Shown here: piece after piece, positions 6,555 to 33,654 of the stretch | Position numbering within the stretch: the first letter of the stretch is position 1 | How the letters are laid out: the number at the start of each line of letters is the position of its first letter | Source of the DNA: a virus | Taxonomy: Duplodnaviria > Caudoviricetes | DNA: 33,654 nt | Reading direction: 5' to 3' (one strand) | Virus record (IMG/VR): IMGVR_UViG_3300017780_000420 | Coordinates: 1-33,654 of that record | The notes under the pieces: generated by a model | Told to the model about the DNA's origin: nothing | Seen by the model: the letters and a program-made list of their open reading frames with translations, nothing else | Databases searched by the model: none | Program-made: the position numbers and the translations under genes

Positions 6555-6966
6555 TTTTTCGTTAGAAGAACTCACACACACCGATCACCGTCAGTTCGAT
6601 AATACCCCTAACGAATCTGAAAGAGCCAACCTAGAGCGTTTAGCGGCCTTCCTAGAGCAAGTTAAAACGGTATTGGGTGGCAAACCAATTATTGTCAATT
6701 CAGCGTTTCGTTCTAAGCAAGTAAATGATGCAGTAGGATCAAAAGATACATCACAGCATCGGATTGGTTGTGCGGCAGACATCCGTGTACCAAATATGAC
6801 CCCCGATGAAGTCGTTAAAGCTGTTATTGCATCGGGGATAGGATATGACCAACTTATTCGAGAATTTGACCGTTGGACACATATTAGTGTTCCTAGTGTT
6901 GCTGGGGGCAATCCTCGCAGACAGTCTTTAATTATTGATCGCCAAGGCGTTAGAAATTATGCCTAA
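6538..6966 (+). CDS. Endolysin, peptidase M15A family
   Basis: LSPNFSLEEL...NSAFRS..VN.AVG...SQH..G.AADI...W.HIS zinc-peptidase motifs. Confidence 0.88.
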   Translation: MKLSPNFSLEELTHTDHRQFDNTPNESERANLERLAAFLEQVKTVLGGKPIIVNSAFRSKQVNDAVGSKDTSQHRIGCAADIRVPNMTPDEVVKAVIASGIGYDQLIREFDRWTHISVPSVAGGNPRRQSLIIDRQGVRNYA

Positions 6967-7454
6967 CCATTATTAGTAAATTCTTTGTGAATTTTTTGCC
7001 GTTTTTCTTTAATTTTAATTTCTGCTTGATTTAAATCATCAAAAAATCCAATGTAAATTTCTTTGTTTTGGTGAACAATTCTTGCTCTCCATTTTTTCTT
7101 TTGTAAGCACCAACCAACACCTTTTACGCCTGAAGTATTGTTTTTCTTTTTCTTTGAATTGCAAGAATTTTCTGAAAGATTACAAATTCTTAAATTTTCA
7201 ATGCGGTTATCAAAAGAATTTCCATTGATATGGTCAATAGTGTTTTCTGTATTTCCATTGTGAAAAATCCAAATTAACCTATGGGCTCTATAAATCTTAT
7301 AATTAATGCAAATTTGATGATAGTGATGACTTTTTGTACCAGCTAACAAATTTTTAAGAGTTCCTTTTCTAAAACTTTTCCAATACAAATTACCATCTTT
7401 ATAATCAAATAACTGGTTTAAATATTCTTTAGTTAAGATATGATCTGTTTTCAT
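6963..7454 (-). CDS. Free-standing HNH homing endonuclease with AP2-like C-terminal domain
   Basis: AHRLIW...IDHINGNSFDNRIENLR plus NTSGVKGV...KWRARI...YIGFF; visibly more AT-rich than flanks. Confidence 0.88.
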   Translation of the reverse strand: MKTDHILTKEYLNQLFDYKDGNLYWKSFRKGTLKNLLAGTKSHHYHQICINYKIYRAHRLIWIFHNGNTENTIDHINGNSFDNRIENLRICNLSENSCNSKKKKNNTSGVKGVGWCLQKKKWRARIVHQNKEIYIGFFDDLNQAEIKIKEKRQKIHKEFTNNG

Positions 7455-11850: not shown

Positions 11851-12030
11851 TCGTTCTTGGTTGGGGGCTCTAACGACATACCAGCGATCAAGACGAAAGT
11901 GTTACTGGGGGTAGTGGATGTAACAGCACAAAATAGGTGGCGAAGCTAGTGCCTATTCCACGAACGACTGGCGGGTTCTGTAACTCCGATGGAGCAGATT
12001 AAGGCGAATCTAGGTAGGCTAGGTTCGTTC
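11851..12030 (+). ncRNA. Candidate multi-hairpin structured RNA
   Basis: Five consecutive stems with G-U pairs favouring the + strand. Confidence 0.5.
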
Positions 12031-12043
12031 ACCGAAAGAGCAA

Positions 12044-12433
12044 ATGAATAAAGAAGAAGTTATAAAATTACTAGCAAATGTGCAAATAACTTCAAGAGAA
12101 GTTCAAGGTAATTACTGGAATCCAATTAAAATTCACGGCAGAAACATCAAACAATATGTTTTTTATGCTGAACGCCACGATTATAAAAAAACAACAAAAA
12201 TCTATAAAACTCTTGGTTGCACACATCAAGAATTATTACAACACATAGAAAAACAGTTTTTAGCTGGCATGAATTGGGAAAACCGCAATTTATGGCACAT
12301 AGACCACATAATTCCTATGGATACAGCAAAAACCATAGAAGATAACTATAAGTTAAATCACTTTACCAACTTACGACCCATGTGGGCTAAAGACAATTTG
12401 TCGAAAAAAAACAACATTACCCATTTAATATAA
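12044..12433 (+). CDS. HNH-family endonuclease
   Basis: LGCT..EL..HIEKQF..GM.WEN...WHIDHIIP...HFTNLRPMWAKDNLSK. Confidence 0.75.
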   Translation: MNKEEVIKLLANVQITSREVQGNYWNPIKIHGRNIKQYVFYAERHDYKKTTKIYKTLGCTHQELLQHIEKQFLAGMNWENRNLWHIDHIIPMDTAKTIEDNYKLNHFTNLRPMWAKDNLSKKNNITHLI

Positions 12434-14803: not shown

Positions 14804-15763
14804 TTACACCTTATGCAGTTCGCCCCTAAAAAATACTAAACCTTCATCTTCATTGATAACCTGAACTAACTCAGGTGGCATTAAACGACTGTTTACATAG
14901 GTAAGGATTGCAAAACCTGCTCTCCAGTTAACGCTAGAATCTTCATGGTACATAAACTGGTCATCTTTTACTGCCGCCATCATTCCAGTATCAACACCAT
15001 ACATATCGCCAGTATAGTTACTCCACGGAGTACATTTCAACGAGTGCAGGTGGCCTGTTACCATTGACATACCGCCTTTAAGGATATTGTTGTACACCGC
15101 ATGAATACCGTTATGCCAGCGGTGTTTTATCATCGTATTGTCATTGACTACTACTGACCAGCTATATGACCAGCCGTACAAATGATCGGCAAGGCACATA
15201 CCTTTAACGCCTTCATATTGGGGTAAAACATTAGACAGCTTGCCATCAAAGCGTAAATCGTGATTACCTATTGTGCGGTGCAATATACATCCAGCAGGGC
15301 GTACTTTTTCTATGTCACCCAATCGGTTTTGGACTTCTTCTAATTCTTGTTGGACTGTTGGATGTTGTTGATAACCGATGCGGTTATGTTGACTGATCTG
15401 TGCAAAATCAAACAAATCGCCATTTAGGACTACCATGTTTGGCTTTAATTCTTTTACAAAATGCACAAAAGCACGGTGAGCAGTAGAGATGTAATTAGGG
15501 TTGTAATGGCAGTCAGACCCTACCATAATGATTCCATCTTTTAATTCATATTCACAGCGTATCTTGTTTTCAGGAATACTAAATCTTGGAACACCACGAT
15601 TGTTATTAGATTCAAGCATAATGTCGTACTTTTTTTCTATATTTTTCCTACGAGCATTAATGTTTCTAACATCAATATTTAATATTTTTGCCAAAGCCGT
15701 AGGGGATCGGTGTTCTTTAAATAATGCGATAAACTCTTGTTCACTACACGCTGGTTTGGTCAT
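14804..15763 (-). CDS. Calcineurin-like metallophosphoesterase with N-terminal HTH-like segment
   Basis: SDCH, NGDLFD, GNHD, H, GHLH motifs. Confidence 0.85.
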   Translation of the reverse strand: MTKPACSEQEFIALFKEHRSPTALAKILNIDVRNINARRKNIEKKYDIMLESNNNRGVPRFSIPENKIRCEYELKDGIIMVGSDCHYNPNYISTAHRAFVHFVKELKPNMVVLNGDLFDFAQISQHNRIGYQQHPTVQQELEEVQNRLGDIEKVRPAGCILHRTIGNHDLRFDGKLSNVLPQYEGVKGMCLADHLYGWSYSWSVVVNDNTMIKHRWHNGIHAVYNNILKGGMSMVTGHLHSLKCTPWSNYTGDMYGVDTGMMAAVKDDQFMYHEDSSVNWRAGFAILTYVNSRLMPPELVQVINEDEGLVFFRGELHKV

Positions 15764-16854: not shown

Positions 16855-17021
16855 TGGTTAAGATGATCCCACCAACCCCTATGAGCCGCAAATATAAAAA
16901 AGAAGATGCAATGCTACGCCCTCATACTGAATCTACGCTAGAAAAGAACCAGCGTGAGCGTTTAGAGCGTAGAGCCGCTATTGCTGACAAACTTAAAGAC
17001 TTGGATAAAGAAGTCAAGTAA
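16854..17021 (+). CDS. Small hypothetical protein (55 aa)
   Basis: TAATG-coupled at both ends; translated by hand. Confidence 0.55.
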   Translation: MVKMIPPTPMSRKYKKEDAMLRPHTESTLEKNQRERLERRAAIADKLKDLDKEVK

Positions 17022-18067
17022 TGGCTACGCTGGCAGATTTGCTAAGAGGTGGATATACACCACCTACTACATCGGCACTTGCTGACCCGATCAAAGAGCA
17101 TTTTCGCACCCTGCCACAGCAATTAGAAACAAACCAACGGGCTATGGATAAAACTATGGCTGGCATGGATAAAACCGACATTATGGGTAGACCAAACCCT
17201 AATTACTACCCTGAAGCTATGCAAGAGTTCACACAGAACTATATGCCAGCAGTAATGGGAAGTACAACCGCTGTTCGCATGGCAAAAGCAATGGAAAACG
17301 CTATGTTGCCAATAGAAAAAGGTGGATTAGGTTTACCTGCTGGTAATACTGCCGCCCAAAGAGCAAAAGCTATGGGGTATGACACGCCCGTTTATCATGG
17401 AACTAATGCAGATATTGAAGCCTTCAATGTTAAAGGTAAAGGCAAGACTGCTGGTGCTGGTGCATTTTTAACAACCAATCCATTAACAGCGGAAACTTAT
17501 GTGTCAGCATCAGGCGGTGGAAACATACTTCCATTGTTGCTAAAAAAAGATGATTTTTTAACTGCCAACGCTAGAGGTAGAAACTGGGCTGACATCTATA
17601 CAAATGAACTAGCGGCAAAATCAGGCAAAACTCGATACACACCGCAAGAATTAGGATTAGACATCAATTCAGCAACTACTACTGATGAATTAGGAATTAT
17701 TGCAGATGAGTTAAGCAAAAAAGGTGCTGAGATTAAAAATGTTAAAGATTTAGGCCCTAATAGTCATGTAATGAGAGCAAAAGAATATTTATTAGAAAAG
17801 TATGGAATCGTTCCTGATGATACTTGGTCAAATGTAACTGGCAAACAATGGGATGAATCCCAAAAAGCCATGAAAAAGTTATACGAATCACAAAAAAGCG
17901 ATATTTATGCCGTACAAGACCCATCATTGATTAGATCAAGATTTGCCGCATTTGACCCTAAAAAAGCAAACAGTCCTGATTTACTGGCTGGAGCATTAGC
18001 TGTTCCTATGGTAGATGAAGATACCCGTAAGGCAACGCTAGAGAAATTGTTTAACGAGCAGAAATAG
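17021..18067 (+). CDS. ADP-ribosyltransferase-like (ART-PolyVal type) protein
   Basis: RAKAMGY...VYHGT..DI.AF...GAFLTTNP..A..Y...DP..IRSRFAAFDP. Confidence 0.6.
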   Translation: MATLADLLRGGYTPPTTSALADPIKEHFRTLPQQLETNQRAMDKTMAGMDKTDIMGRPNPNYYPEAMQEFTQNYMPAVMGSTTAVRMAKAMENAMLPIEKGGLGLPAGNTAAQRAKAMGYDTPVYHGTNADIEAFNVKGKGKTAGAGAFLTTNPLTAETYVSASGGGNILPLLLKKDDFLTANARGRNWADIYTNELAAKSGKTRYTPQELGLDINSATTTDELGIIADELSKKGAEIKNVKDLGPNSHVMRAKEYLLEKYGIVPDDTWSNVTGKQWDESQKAMKKLYESQKSDIYAVQDPSLIRSRFAAFDPKKANSPDLLAGALAVPMVDEDTRKATLEKLFNEQK

Positions 18068-25580: not shown

Positions 25581-26470
25581 ATCCGCACACGGAATACAAA
25601 AAAGCCTACGAGCACCTACACGCTGGTCGTTTAGATGCAGGTTTTAGATTGTTTGAGTATCGCTGGCATCCTGAAATAATGGCTAATCAGCTTGAAGGTT
25701 ACGCAAAACCTTTAAAAATGCCTGTATGGAGAGGTGAAAGTCTACTTGGTAAGTCTATAACCATTGTTGCAGAGCAAGGTTTTGGCGATATTATCCAGTA
25801 CGCACGATTCCTACCATTTTTAAAAGTGATGGGTGCTAAAAAAGTAGTTTTATTGCAAAACGGCTCGCTTCACTTGCTATTTGGGCAAATGGATTGCATA
25901 GATCAATTTACAAATATGCCCGAAGAAGGCGTTGCCACAGAATCAGACTATTGGCTTGGCATAATTTCTCTGCCTTATTACATCAGCCTAGCCCCAGCCT
26001 ACGCAAAAGCCTTATTTCCAATATCTATTAAGAAAATAGTAGGCTCTGAAGGGTATTTAGACGCCATTCCTAGCAATATTCCCAAGAAAATAGGCGTTAA
26101 TTGGTCAACTTCCAAAGGGATTTTGCACTATATCCGCACCCTAAACCCTGAAATCATGTTGCAAGCTGTTGGTGATGATGCCTATTCTTTAAACATAGAA
26201 GAAGATAAGTTTTGGACACCCCTACCTAACGATGGCTGGAAGCAAGATTGGTCTAAAACTGCAAGCCATTTAAAGGCTCTCAAAGGCTTGGTTACTGTAG
26301 ATACTGGGATAGCCCACCTAGCTGGTGCTTTGGGCGTTAGAACCATCGTAATCATGCCTAGAAAAGAGTTTAAGTGTTGGCGTTGGAAGCACGGCACTTG
26401 GTACAACTCAATAGTTACTATTGAAGAAGATGAGATGGACAAAATACCCGAAATCATAAGGAGAATGTAA
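25562..26470 (+). CDS. Glycosyltransferase-like protein (GT-B/GT9-like, as in TPR-GT fusions); start uncertain
   Basis: W.GE.L.GK.I....EQGFGDIIQY.RF and VTVDTGIAHLAGALG...WRW motifs; frame open from 25553, first canonical start only at 25649. Confidence 0.7.
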   Translation: MNTSTLNPHTEYKKAYEHLHAGRLDAGFRLFEYRWHPEIMANQLEGYAKPLKMPVWRGESLLGKSITIVAEQGFGDIIQYARFLPFLKVMGAKKVVLLQNGSLHLLFGQMDCIDQFTNMPEEGVATESDYWLGIISLPYYISLAPAYAKALFPISIKKIVGSEGYLDAIPSNIPKKIGVNWSTSKGILHYIRTLNPEIMLQAVGDDAYSLNIEEDKFWTPLPNDGWKQDWSKTASHLKALKGLVTVDTGIAHLAGALGVRTIVIMPRKEFKCWRWKHGTWYNSIVTIEEDEMDKIPEIIRRM

Positions 26471-27985: not shown

Positions 27986-29483
27986 ATGGCATTTGCTAAC
28001 TCAGCAATCACCGATATTATCGCTACTACCATTCAAAGCCGTAGCGGAGTATTGGCAGATAACTTGACACAAAACAACGCAATCCTACAAAGATTGAACT
28101 CAAAGGGTAATGTACGACCCTTCTCAGGCGGTAATGTAATCCTTAATGTTGGGGTCACTCTGAATTAAAACTCAGATGTGAGAATTCTCTCTGATTGACT
28201 TGGAACTCCCGAAGGGGACAACAAGGGGCAAGTTTAAATACAGCCTGAACGACTAAGCGAGAGAACACCTGTGAAGGTGAAGCGATAGTCTGCACTTGGA
28301 TATAACTTGAAGTAAATCAAGTCCAAGAGTTTGGCAGAAATGACCAAGCATGGTTAAGTTAGTGACCATTAACAATAGGCGAGGAGATCATGTACAATGA
28401 TCCAAACACTAACAATGCAAACAGTTATAGTGGGTTGACTTCTAGCCCCTTCATTAATTTGCAGTAAGCAAGTTTTTGTAGCAAATGGGATGAATTCGGT
28501 GGAAACCTTTGAATTTGAGGTGAGTTTAAAGATAATACCGAGCCAAGCTGTGTATGTAACCCGAAAGGGCTAGGGACACAGAAGGTGTAACGACTAGGGG
28601 TCGAGAGAAATCAGTAATGCCCCCACGAGCTTCCCACCCGAAAGGGATGATATAGTCTGAACAGTATGGTGACATACTGAAGTAGCGGATAAAGAGCCAC
28701 TACGATAACAAAATTGACGAAGTATTAAACATCACCCCTGATAGCCCTATCTCTGCGGCTCAGTTCAGCATTACGCAGTACGCTGATTCTGTGACAATGA
28801 GTGGTCTAGAAATGTTGCAAAACAGCTCAAAAGAGGCAATTATTGACCTCTTAGACGGCCGTATGCAAGTTTCTGAAGCCCGTTTGTTGAACCGTATCTC
28901 TACCGACCTTTATGGTGACGGTACAGGTAATGGCGGTAAAAACATTACTGGTTTAGCGGCCGCTATCAGCACTTCACCAACTTCAGGCACATACGGTGGT
29001 ATTAACCGTGCAAACTGGGAATTTTGGCGTAACCAAGCAACAACTGGTGCTGACACATCCGCTTTGATCCAAGCCGCAATGACTACAGCCGCTATCAAGT
29101 CCGTTCGTGGAACTGATAAGACTGATTTAATCATCGCTGGTAACACTTTGTATCAACGCTATGTTGCATCCTTACAAGCTATTCAGCGTATTGCTGGTGT
29201 AGAAGAAGGTGCGGCTGGCTTTGCATCATTGAAGTTCTACGGTGGCGGTATGTCTGCTGATGTGGTATTAGGTGGTGGTATTGGTGCTCAAGAAAACGCA
29301 TTGTATATGTATCTCTTGAATACTAATTACATCTTCTTCCGCCCACACAAAGAGCGTAATTTCGTACCTATCGGTGGCGAGCGTCAATCAATCAACCAAG
29401 ACGCTATTGTTAAGCTCTATGGTTGGGCTGGTAACTTGACTTGTTCAAATAGCCAACTACAAGGCGTGTTGACTGGTTCTTAA
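27986..29483 (+). CDS. Major capsid protein, join(27986..28143,28380..28435,28717..29483), 326 aa
   Basis: Joined exons total 981 nt with no internal stop: ...FSGGNVIL-EEIMYNDPNTNNANSYSG-YEVLNITPDSPISAAQF...; AAGGA RBS; follows scaffold. Confidence 0.9.
28144..28379 (+). mobile_element. Group I intron 1 (236 nt, no ORF)
   Basis: Exon ends in U pairing with G of IGS GGGGUCAC; P2 TCTGA/TCAGA; P3 TTCTCTC/GAGAGAA; P7 GACTA(28251)/TAGTC(28286); P8 CACC/GGTG; P9 hairpins; terminal G. Confidence 0.9.
28436..28716 (+). mobile_element. Group I intron 2 (281 nt, no ORF, IA-like P7 insertion)
   Basis: P1 GGGU/GCCC with U-G; P3 TGGGA/TCCCA; P4 TTCGGT/ACCGAG; P7 GACTA(28592)/TAGTC(28653); extra stem GGGGT/GCCCC; P8 CCC-GAAA-GGG; P9 CAGTATG-GTGA-CATACTG; terminal G. 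Confidence 0.92.
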
Positions 29484-29854: not shown

Positions 29855-29889
29855 AAGGGGTTGGCTCAAAAGGCTGACCCCTTTTCTTT
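29855..29889 (+). terminator. Intrinsic terminator
   Basis: AAGGGGTTGGC-TCAAAAG-GCTGACCCCTT followed by T-rich run. Confidence 0.75.
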
Positions 29890-33255: not shown

Positions 33256-33654
33256 TGCTATGTTTTGATAAAGACTTATTAGGGCCGCTTATTGCCCAAA
33301 AGTTAAACATGGTATGGACACCTGAAAATTCCACAACAATTGGATGGGTCAAGGATGGAATAGAAGCAGTAGTTTGGTATGAGGATTTTAATAAAAGGTC
33401 AGTAACTTGCCATATTTATCTTGAAAAAGGCTTAAATAAGCAATATTTACATACCATTTTTGATTATCCTTTTGTACAATTGGGGGTAGATAAGATTATT
33501 GCCCCAGTAGTAAGTAGTAACGACAAGTCGGTAGAGTTTGTCAAGAAATTGGGGTTTGAGGAACAAGCACGATTACTTGATGTTTTTCCTACTGGAGATT
33601 TGTTGTTTTTTGTAATGTCAAAAGACAAATGTAGATTTTTAGGAGAAAGATATG
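33255..33654 (+). CDS. GNAT acetyltransferase-like protein (143 aa, continues across the junction to TGA at 142-144)
   Basis: IFDYPFVQLGV.KI...V...N.KS..FVKKLGF.E.ARL motif; frame continuous through the overlap. Confidence 0.75.
   Translation, partial: MLCFDKDLLGPLIAQKLNMVWTPENSTTIGWVKDGIEAVVWYEDFNKRSVTCHIYLEKGLNKQYLHTIFDYPFVQLGVDKIIAPVVSSNDKSVEFVKKLGFEEQARLLDVFPTGDLLFFVMSKDKCRFLGERY
33543..33654. repeat. Terminal direct repeat, right copy
   Basis: Identical to 1-112. Confidence 0.97.

Follow-up and report, generated by a model that had tools for sequence, protein, structure and literature searches.

The window, meaning the whole stretch of 33,654 nucleotides that was analyzed, is a closed circular phage contig of ~33.5 kb with a 112-nt direct terminal repeat at positions 1-112 and 33543-33654. 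Its profile matches include terminase, portal, major head, and tail genes, and the metagenome runs that contain this region are mostly freshwater. There is one copy of the capsid gene in the window, and no nuclease gene adjoins it. As a preliminary description of the sequence had claimed, the capsid reading frame is broken twice, and removal of two inserts, here called introns A and B, joins exons of 158, 56, and 767 nt into a single open frame of 326 amino acids; the coordinates that it proposed for both inserts are exact (Table 1). No further group I intron was detected in the window by Rfam or by R1, a model of intron A. A promoter scan of the window returned 10 sites, compared with 7.0 ± 3.0 in shuffled sequences, and is uninformative.

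Table 1. Coordinates of the capsid locus, its introns, and the free-standing nuclease genes of the window
Feature	Position	Strand	Description
Free-standing HNH gene	6963-7454	-	Low GC; faces endolysin
Endonuclease VII-like gene	12044-12433	+	Free-standing; profile match
Probable scaffold gene, 361 aa	26877..27962	+	Upstream of capsid gene; named from its position; no family match
Major capsid exon 1, 158 nt (52 codons + CT)	27986..28143	+	phrog_9953 positions 4-52; AAAGGA ribosome-binding site just upstream
Intron A, 236 nt	28144..28379	+	Very probable group I intron, ORF-less
Intron A parts	P1 guide 28151-28155		P2; P3-P8 core; P9, P9.1, P9.2; terminal G; without P7.1 and without P5abc
Micro-exon, 56 nt	28380..28435	+	Residues 53-72; length not a multiple of 3
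Intron B, 281 nt	28436..28716	+	Very probable group I intron, ORF-less
Intron B parts	P1 guide 28445-28451; P3 28486-28636; P7 28592-28657		5-bp P10; P4, P5, P6; P7.1; P8, P9, P9.1; terminal G
Major capsid exon 3, 767 nt	28717..29483	+	Residues 72-326 and stop; holds empty intron site C after Ala301
Virion structural gene, 98 aa	29527..29823	+	Downstream of capsid gene
Terminator-like hairpin	29855-29883		After the 98-aa virion structural gene

Elsewhere in the window, a 348-aa gene ahead of the terminase genes (17021-18067, +) matches Pfam PF18760, the ADP-ribosyltransferase domain ART-PolyVal, with E = 1e-8. The virion module includes a glycosyltransferase family 9-like gene (25649-26470, +), and a metallophosphoesterase gene (14804-15763, -) lies on the strand opposite to that module. 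An Rfam Betaproteobacteria-1 RNA was found between two small genes at 11854-11976 (+), with a score of 93.1 bits and a cutoff of 49.4. A capsid gene 94% identical to that of the window occurs in a bin labeled Ca. Methylopumilus, and 4 other full or partial matches occur in bins of unrelated taxa. The RNA and this one bin label hint at a betaproteobacterial host.

Both exon junctions are unique, with no sliding possible; the last base is T in each 5' exon and G in each insert. Introns A and B have 6 to 10 stops per sense frame, and the longest stop-free run on either strand is no more than 58 codons. The joined protein was compared with its homologues; the preliminary description had proposed colinearity across VIL-EEIM and SYSG-YEVL as a check. 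Among the 120 homologues listed, all 77 of the 326-aa homologues cross both junctions without a gap (best identity, 93%). The first junction reads NVILEEIMY in 56 of the 77, with near variants in the others, and the second reads SYSGYEVLN in 74. The profile match to phrog_9953, an Mx8-like major head family of 329 positions, extends over its full length, with exon 1 (positions 4-52) and exon 3 (positions 72-328) at its two ends. The major virion protein of Myxococcus phage Mx8 shares 51.5% identity with a close homologue that lacks the introns. No solved structure was found among the sequence relatives of the capsid protein. The junction sites fall in near-invariant stretches, but 19 to 44% of windows along the protein are equally conserved, and this test is nondiscriminating.

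Retention of intron A is predicted to give a product of 60 aa, retention of intron B a product of 81 aa, and skipping of exon 2 a product of 60 aa. Because the window has a single capsid gene and unspliced or skipped RNA would yield only these 60- to 81-aa products, the full capsid protein requires the removal of both introns. This bears out the earlier claims that capsid production needs two splicing events and that skipping the 56-nt exon shifts the frame, although skipping itself is predicted to be rare from the specificity of the guides described below. The tails of the truncated products have no likeness to the tmRNA tag, whose ending, as generally known, was used for the comparison.

The Rfam group I model RF00028 matched both inserts, at 43.9 bits (E = 3.5e-8) for intron B and at 19.4 bits (E = 0.78) for intron A. 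The covariance model search that had been proposed as a check thus hit both inserts, but with scores under the gathering score of 50. The same score was reached by none of 25 relatives; it is a database threshold and not a defining trait of the group I class. Introns A and B each contain the group I core P3-P4-P6-P7-P8-P9 with the P3/P7 pseudoknot and the G-binding pair. The final U of each 5' exon pairs with a guide G in P1, and each intron has a terminal G. The description of both inserts as ORF-less group I introns preceded by U and ending in G agrees with these results, as no ORF is present and the guides and cores pair. Folding z-scores were -3.5 for intron A and -2.7 for intron B, and an unconstrained fold of intron A yielded P2, P3, P4, P5, P6, P8, P9, P9.1, and P9.2.

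Among 16 distinct variants of intron A, 99.2% of 968 cells were paired and 20 of 61 pairs had changed on both sides. None of 500 shuffles scored as high, and slid structures were 38 to 47% paired; the structure was drawn from the same, related sequences, and these controls therefore flatter the covariation somewhat. P1 and P7 are invariant across the variants and give no covariation signal. The helices of intron B also pair, including those of the P3/P7 core, and its copies, at 97% identity by column, are too alike for a covariation test. In the same intron A alignment, variants of P2, P6, P8, and P9.1 were seen by eye in mixed combinations, with P6 variants shared with the introns at a third site (site C, below), a pattern that resembles an exchange of modules among introns.

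The two introns are unlike each other. An extra helix, P7.1, between P7 and P3 is a mark of subgroup IA. Intron B has such a helix of 4 bp (28597-28623), which suggests that it is IA-like, and in intron A the 5' strand of P7 is followed by 3 nt and then by P3. P10, the pairing of the guide with the 3' exon, is frequent in group I introns though not universal; it has 5 pairs in register in intron B and is weak in intron A, where 3 pairs form only in a shifted register. Introns A and B have only ~20 nt in common, and model R1 does not match intron B. Each guide also fits its own exon: the intron A guide pairs with its own exon end at 7 of 8 positions and with the exon end of intron B at 2 of 8, and the intron B guide pairs with its own exon end at 6 of 7 positions and with the exon end of intron A at 2 of 7. 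Since each guide fits only its own splice site, exon skipping is predicted to be rare. Being unlike, A and B do not form a Twort-type pair, in which two highly similar introns flank a short exon. The inserts are very probably two working group I introns.

Junction reads in metatranscriptomes had been proposed as a further check. Five RNA runs and three DNA runs (X1, X2, and X7) were compared, all as contigs; X16 and X18 are lake metatranscriptomes. An RNA contig in X16 (record 11) joins position 28143 exactly to position 28380 and then reads through intron B. This contig has 17 differences from the window in exon 1 and then 5 differences and 1 gap, and both counts match only one of 16 loci, L086, the DNA of which carries introns A and B. 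All 3 substitutions listed in intron B of X16 are among the five of L086. A second X16 contig retains intron A with 6 differences, which is the count of L086 and also that of L095 and L104. Record 12 of X18 has the same exact 28143/28380 joint (flagged "between: not known") with 12 differences and two gaps, and its best fit is L101, which carries intron A. No exact intron A joint was listed in the DNA runs X1, X2, and X7, and exact joints with the difference patterns of A-bearing genomes were found in 2 of the 5 RNA runs. These joints have depths of 3.8 and 5.2 and lie on unstranded contigs of relatives matched by difference counts, from libraries that may hold DNA, and a DNA allele with a precise loss of intron A could possibly yield them too. 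Taken together, the RNA contigs of close relatives indicate that intron A is likely spliced in the lake. For intron B, X16 has one exact joint, at a depth of 3.3, and X18 has a loose end of 11 nt. The metatranscriptome check thus gave indirect support for splicing of intron A, but the RNA evidence for intron B is weak because in X7 DNA an allele that lacks the intron has the same bases, GGGT, before site B. Joints in X15, X17, and X19 were rejected as splicing: intron sequence is present, and the joints have other letters, which fit intron-less alleles.

The introns are rare among relatives. All of the best 80 of 584 IMG/VR relatives lack both introns, in a search with a tool that favors unbroken matches, and intron carriers make up a few per cent of ~620 stretches for the capsid gene. 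Scans of IMG/VR for the intron junctions gave 24 matches for intron A, of which 23 are true (L103 is false) and 21 are measurable, at 236 to 246 nt. The same scans gave 13 matches for intron B, of which 11 could be parsed, at 280 to 282 nt, and 5 contigs carry both. A third ORF-less intron of 237 to 239 nt, intron C, follows Ala301 in 8 contigs (L085, L087, L091, L093, L096, L097, L099, and L101); it has the core of intron A with a different guide and without P2. L091 and L099 carry all three introns. This 1-kb gene exists in nature as alleles with no intron, A, B, A+B, A+C, and A+B+C. The copies measured at sites A, B, and C (21, 11, and 6, respectively) are all ORF-less and 236 to 282 nt long, and none carries an endonuclease. 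Nor was an endonuclease-bearing donor found at site B, where only short inserts were seen among the 13 matches in IMG/VR and 11 in JGI metagenomes; among the JGI junction matches, L355 resembles the record of the window itself, and several are repeats of contigs in IMG/VR. A search with intron A returned 2 uncultured records, and with intron B the only matches were to the last 70 nt of introns, mostly in phages of Gram-positive hosts. No cultured phage carrying these introns was found in that search.

Exon sequence next to the introns is matched to their guides. Among 98 distinct alleles from 110 loci, the silent codons that fit the guide were present in 17 of 17 alleles with intron A and in 6 of 81 without it, in 9 of 9 with intron B and in 4 of 89 without it, and in 6 of 6 with intron C and in 7 of 92 without it. 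This pattern fits selection for splicing, or it may reflect carry-over of the flanks with the introns.

On a quickly built tree of 98 capsid alleles from which the site flanks were removed, intron presence is scattered. The distribution needs 11 changes for A, 8 for B, and 5 for C; the capsid gene is itself recombinant, so these counts are rough, and gain and loss are indistinguishable. Copies of intron B are 96.5% alike in hosts that are 84.5% alike (9 alleles), and copies of intron A are 80% alike in hosts that are 82% alike (14 alleles). Since copies of B are more alike than their hosts and copies of A are not, B appears to have spread recently and A to be older. Across the whole gene, the window differs from L086 at 95 sites, of which only 1 is in coding nt 145-262. 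Between L086 and L044, its sister without introns, there are 52 differences, 45 of them within nt 87-304. This clustering shows that intron A, the micro-exon, and intron B moved together as one patch. Carriers of intron B also share their 3' flank, with z values of 4.6 and 2.6 in two of 32 windows; around intron A, no window above a z of 3 marked a conversion tract.

The relatives of intron A form a large family. A motif from its core gave ~600 matches in IMG/VR, with 125 loci seen in 13 of 64 parts. Flanks were assigned with a PHROG scan of 129 of the 137 flanking frames of the first 80 loci and then by similarity to those pieces. By this assignment, 86 of 117 distinct matches lie within 200 nt of a capsid exon, 38 of them with capsid exons on both sides; 8 lie in tape measure genes, 3 in ribonucleotide reductases, and 20 had no assignment. 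A second scan of those 20 added 3 capsid, 1 tape measure, and 1 portal gene. When the matches were clustered at 90%, 73 of 104 lay at capsid exons. The neighboring capsid genes belong to five profile families (phrog_9953, 283 [P22-like], 1357, 267, and SU10-like). When 89 of 115 frames were scanned for a control motif from intron B, its matches were spread over polymerase, helicase, terminase, portal, tape measure, reductase, and capsid genes. In 37 records, all 32 matches to model R1 (in 21 records) fell in one stretch of no more than 2 kb per record, including 7 records with multiple matches. The family of intron A, as judged with a capsid-derived motif, thus sits mostly in capsid genes, in about three quarters of the copies examined; the motif was taken from a capsid intron and the R1 records were chosen for it, and the excess is accordingly not an unbiased one. 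Endonuclease-like ORFs lie beside A-type cores in L156, L168, L171, L176, L185, L189, and L190. No published account of a capsid-biased group I intron family was found in the mainly open-access literature.

We consider it probable that A and B are two unrelated ORF-less group I introns that would self-splice independently and at almost no cost from the late mRNA, and that they are likely passengers spread by DNA recombination between co-infecting phages. Each intron would fold on the late mRNA. In keeping with established group I chemistry, an external guanosine would attack at the U.G pair in P1, and the 5' exon would then attack after the terminal G, ligating the exons. Because the two guides differ and the cores are unlike, the two reactions are expected to be independent and retention of the micro-exon to be favored. 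Engineered tandem introns with differing splice-site elements keep their exon similarly, as described in PMC10136302, which also mentions skipping between unlike introns in Coxiella. Each intron may first have arrived by endonuclease homing; since then it would have lost its endonuclease, or it would now be spread through ordinary recombination or through a nuclease that acts from elsewhere. Their rarity and scattered distribution make the introns look like tolerated passengers.

A different route, which we regard as unlikely, is that the family of intron A colonizes its sites at the RNA level, by reverse splicing into abundant capsid mRNA, a change of guide, and fixation through cDNA and recombination. 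Such a route would explain why the family clusters in capsid genes: 86 of 117 A-core matches are at capsid exons of five profile families, compared with the mixed genes of the B-type motif, R1 matches are confined to one short stretch in every record, and intron C combines the core of A with another guide and no P2. Related introns at two places in one gene are described in PMC3984707 as the best circumstantial sign of reverse splicing. However, the same source, in the part available, describes the pathway as being without direct experimental support, no reverse transcriptase was found among the 18 of 87 window ORFs scanned, and a motif derived from a capsid intron leans the sample toward capsid genes. 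Ordinary homing would suffice for the members in capsid genes that have endonucleases (L156, L171, and L190), and the shared 3' flank of intron B resembles DNA conversion. A broader version, conceivable though in our judgment doubtful, places intron A in a lineage of small group I ribozymes that is undescribed and specialized on capsid genes, with hundreds of copies in aquatic phages. Having no endonuclease of its own, this lineage would reach new sites by reverse splicing into the late mRNA that is most abundant and by retuning its guide. If this were true, capsid genes with two or three sister introns and differing guides would be a natural record of, and a test bed for, transposition by the long-proposed RNA route, and the view that group I introns of phages favor genes of nucleotide and DNA metabolism would be overturned.

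It is improbable that the introns are instead kept to tune capsid output, for example, through dependence on GTP and Mg2+ or through exon skipping into a short product. The short products of unspliced or skipped RNA, the partly spliced-looking RNA contig, and purifying selection on intron structure agree with such a role, and sensing is named as an unproven hypothesis in PMC11878797. However, structural selection is expected for any intron in an essential gene, the specific guides predict that skipping is rare, and the truncated tails are unlike tmRNA tags. The introns are also optional in the population, being absent from the best 80 relatives and scattered among the few carriers, which argues against a needed control role.

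Passenger introns spread by recombination are also a better account than collaborative homing, in which a free-standing phage endonuclease would cut intron-less capsid genes and so spread the ORF-less introns, a reading that we hold to be very improbable. The mechanism is known: PMC3984707 describes a group I intron lacking an ORF and mobilized with a free-standing endonuclease. The window has two free-standing nuclease genes (Table 1), and intron B, whose carriers share their 3' flank, seems to have spread recently. Both genes lie away from the capsid gene, however, and neither tracks the introns. The HNH gene was matched in 1 of 13 intron-bearing records and in 3 of 12 intron-less records, and the endonuclease VII-like gene in none of the same 25 relatives, some of which are fragments. 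Among 37 loci, no cluster of nuclease-like ORFs, compared by eye from their sequence starts, lies within 2.5 kb of an intron-bearing capsid gene, and no nuclease that tracks the introns was found among these flanking ORFs or with the window's two nucleases in the 25 relatives. HNH-like genes were seen by eye 1 to 2 kb downstream of intron-less capsid genes, in two clusters of 3 loci each (L006:5022-5519, -, and L012:3294-3815, -). Collaborative homing thus shares with the window an ORF-less mobile phage intron but differs in that the window has no partner nuclease adjacent to or tracking the introns.

The idea that the inserts are dead or misassembled and the capsid gene a pseudogene, for which the two Rfam scores under the cutoff might speak, is refuted by the recurrence of the inserts at an identical nucleotide in dozens of independent contigs, by their presence in contigs from three DNA runs, by exons that are intact in 30 of 30 intron-bearing loci parsed, by compensatory changes, and by exact RNA joints.

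Self-splicing introns in capsid genes are already known, and the preliminary description overstated the surprise of finding them there. The capsid gene of mycobacteriophage LittleE has an 819-bp intron with an endonuclease, and its splicing was shown by RT-PCR and protein sequencing. BAKA and Optimus have a short related intron, ORF-less and 265 nt long, in a tail gene, and a capsid intron is also cited from Tuc2009 (PMC3706429; PMC2504315). LittleE resembles the window in having a group I intron in the major capsid gene with U before it and G at its end, and BAKA resembles it in having a short ORF-less intron in a structural gene, although one other than the capsid gene. In contrast to the one intron per gene described in these accounts, the window, a 33.5-kb freshwater phage, has two unlike ORF-less introns 56 nt apart, and its relatives have up to three. 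A multi-intron gene with a short exon is also published, namely, orf142 of Staphylococcus phage Twort (Landthaler and Shub 1999), which has three introns, a 23-nt exon, and exon skipping, as described in PMC10136302. Like the window, it has several group I introns and a short exon between two of them, but introns 2 and 3 of Twort, both of subgroup IA2, are highly similar and skip the exon, whereas A and B share ~20 nt, have different guides, and are predicted to include it.

Two larger groups of phages were also compared. The Delta and Zeta groups of crAss-like phages have group I introns in major capsid genes, with one gene in five fragments (PMC7886860). These are large gut phages in which the introns were found via endonuclease domains and many other genes are affected, whereas the window introns have no ORF and occurred in the capsid gene alone among the records searched. 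Jug jumbo phages (360 to 402 kb) have ~18 short group I introns each, the interrupted genes named being terL, nrdD, and polymerase, with splicing supported by metatranscriptomes (PMC12880540). They share with the window short group I introns in essential phage genes, and the accessible part of that account names no capsid intron for them. The locus by itself would not surprise a specialist; what merits pursuit is the capsid bias of the family of intron A and the way in which ORF-less copies have spread. A 2025 paper still describes as mysterious the tendency of phage group I introns to occupy genes for nucleotide and DNA metabolism (PMC12350094). With about three quarters of the family at capsid exons, intron A offers a counterexample that merits a census. 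The natural allele series in one 1-kb gene also makes the cost, the splicing order, and the route of spread of ORF-less introns directly testable.

Because introns of this kind score under the Rfam cutoff, such capsid genes are filed as fragments. In GenBank MW202674 (L345, 1691-3206), the annotation splits a P22-like coat gene into two CDSs and places a spurious small ORF in the gap, which holds an A-type core and is scored at 124 bits by model R1. Capsid-based virus surveys will miss or truncate capsid genes that are split in this way. Additional break points, near residues 21, 28, 58, 61, 84, 126, 146, 260, and 277, occur in more distant genes of this capsid family (L119, L125, L140, L163, L249, L277, L285, L286, and L329); L249 and L285 have long inserts that may include an endonuclease.
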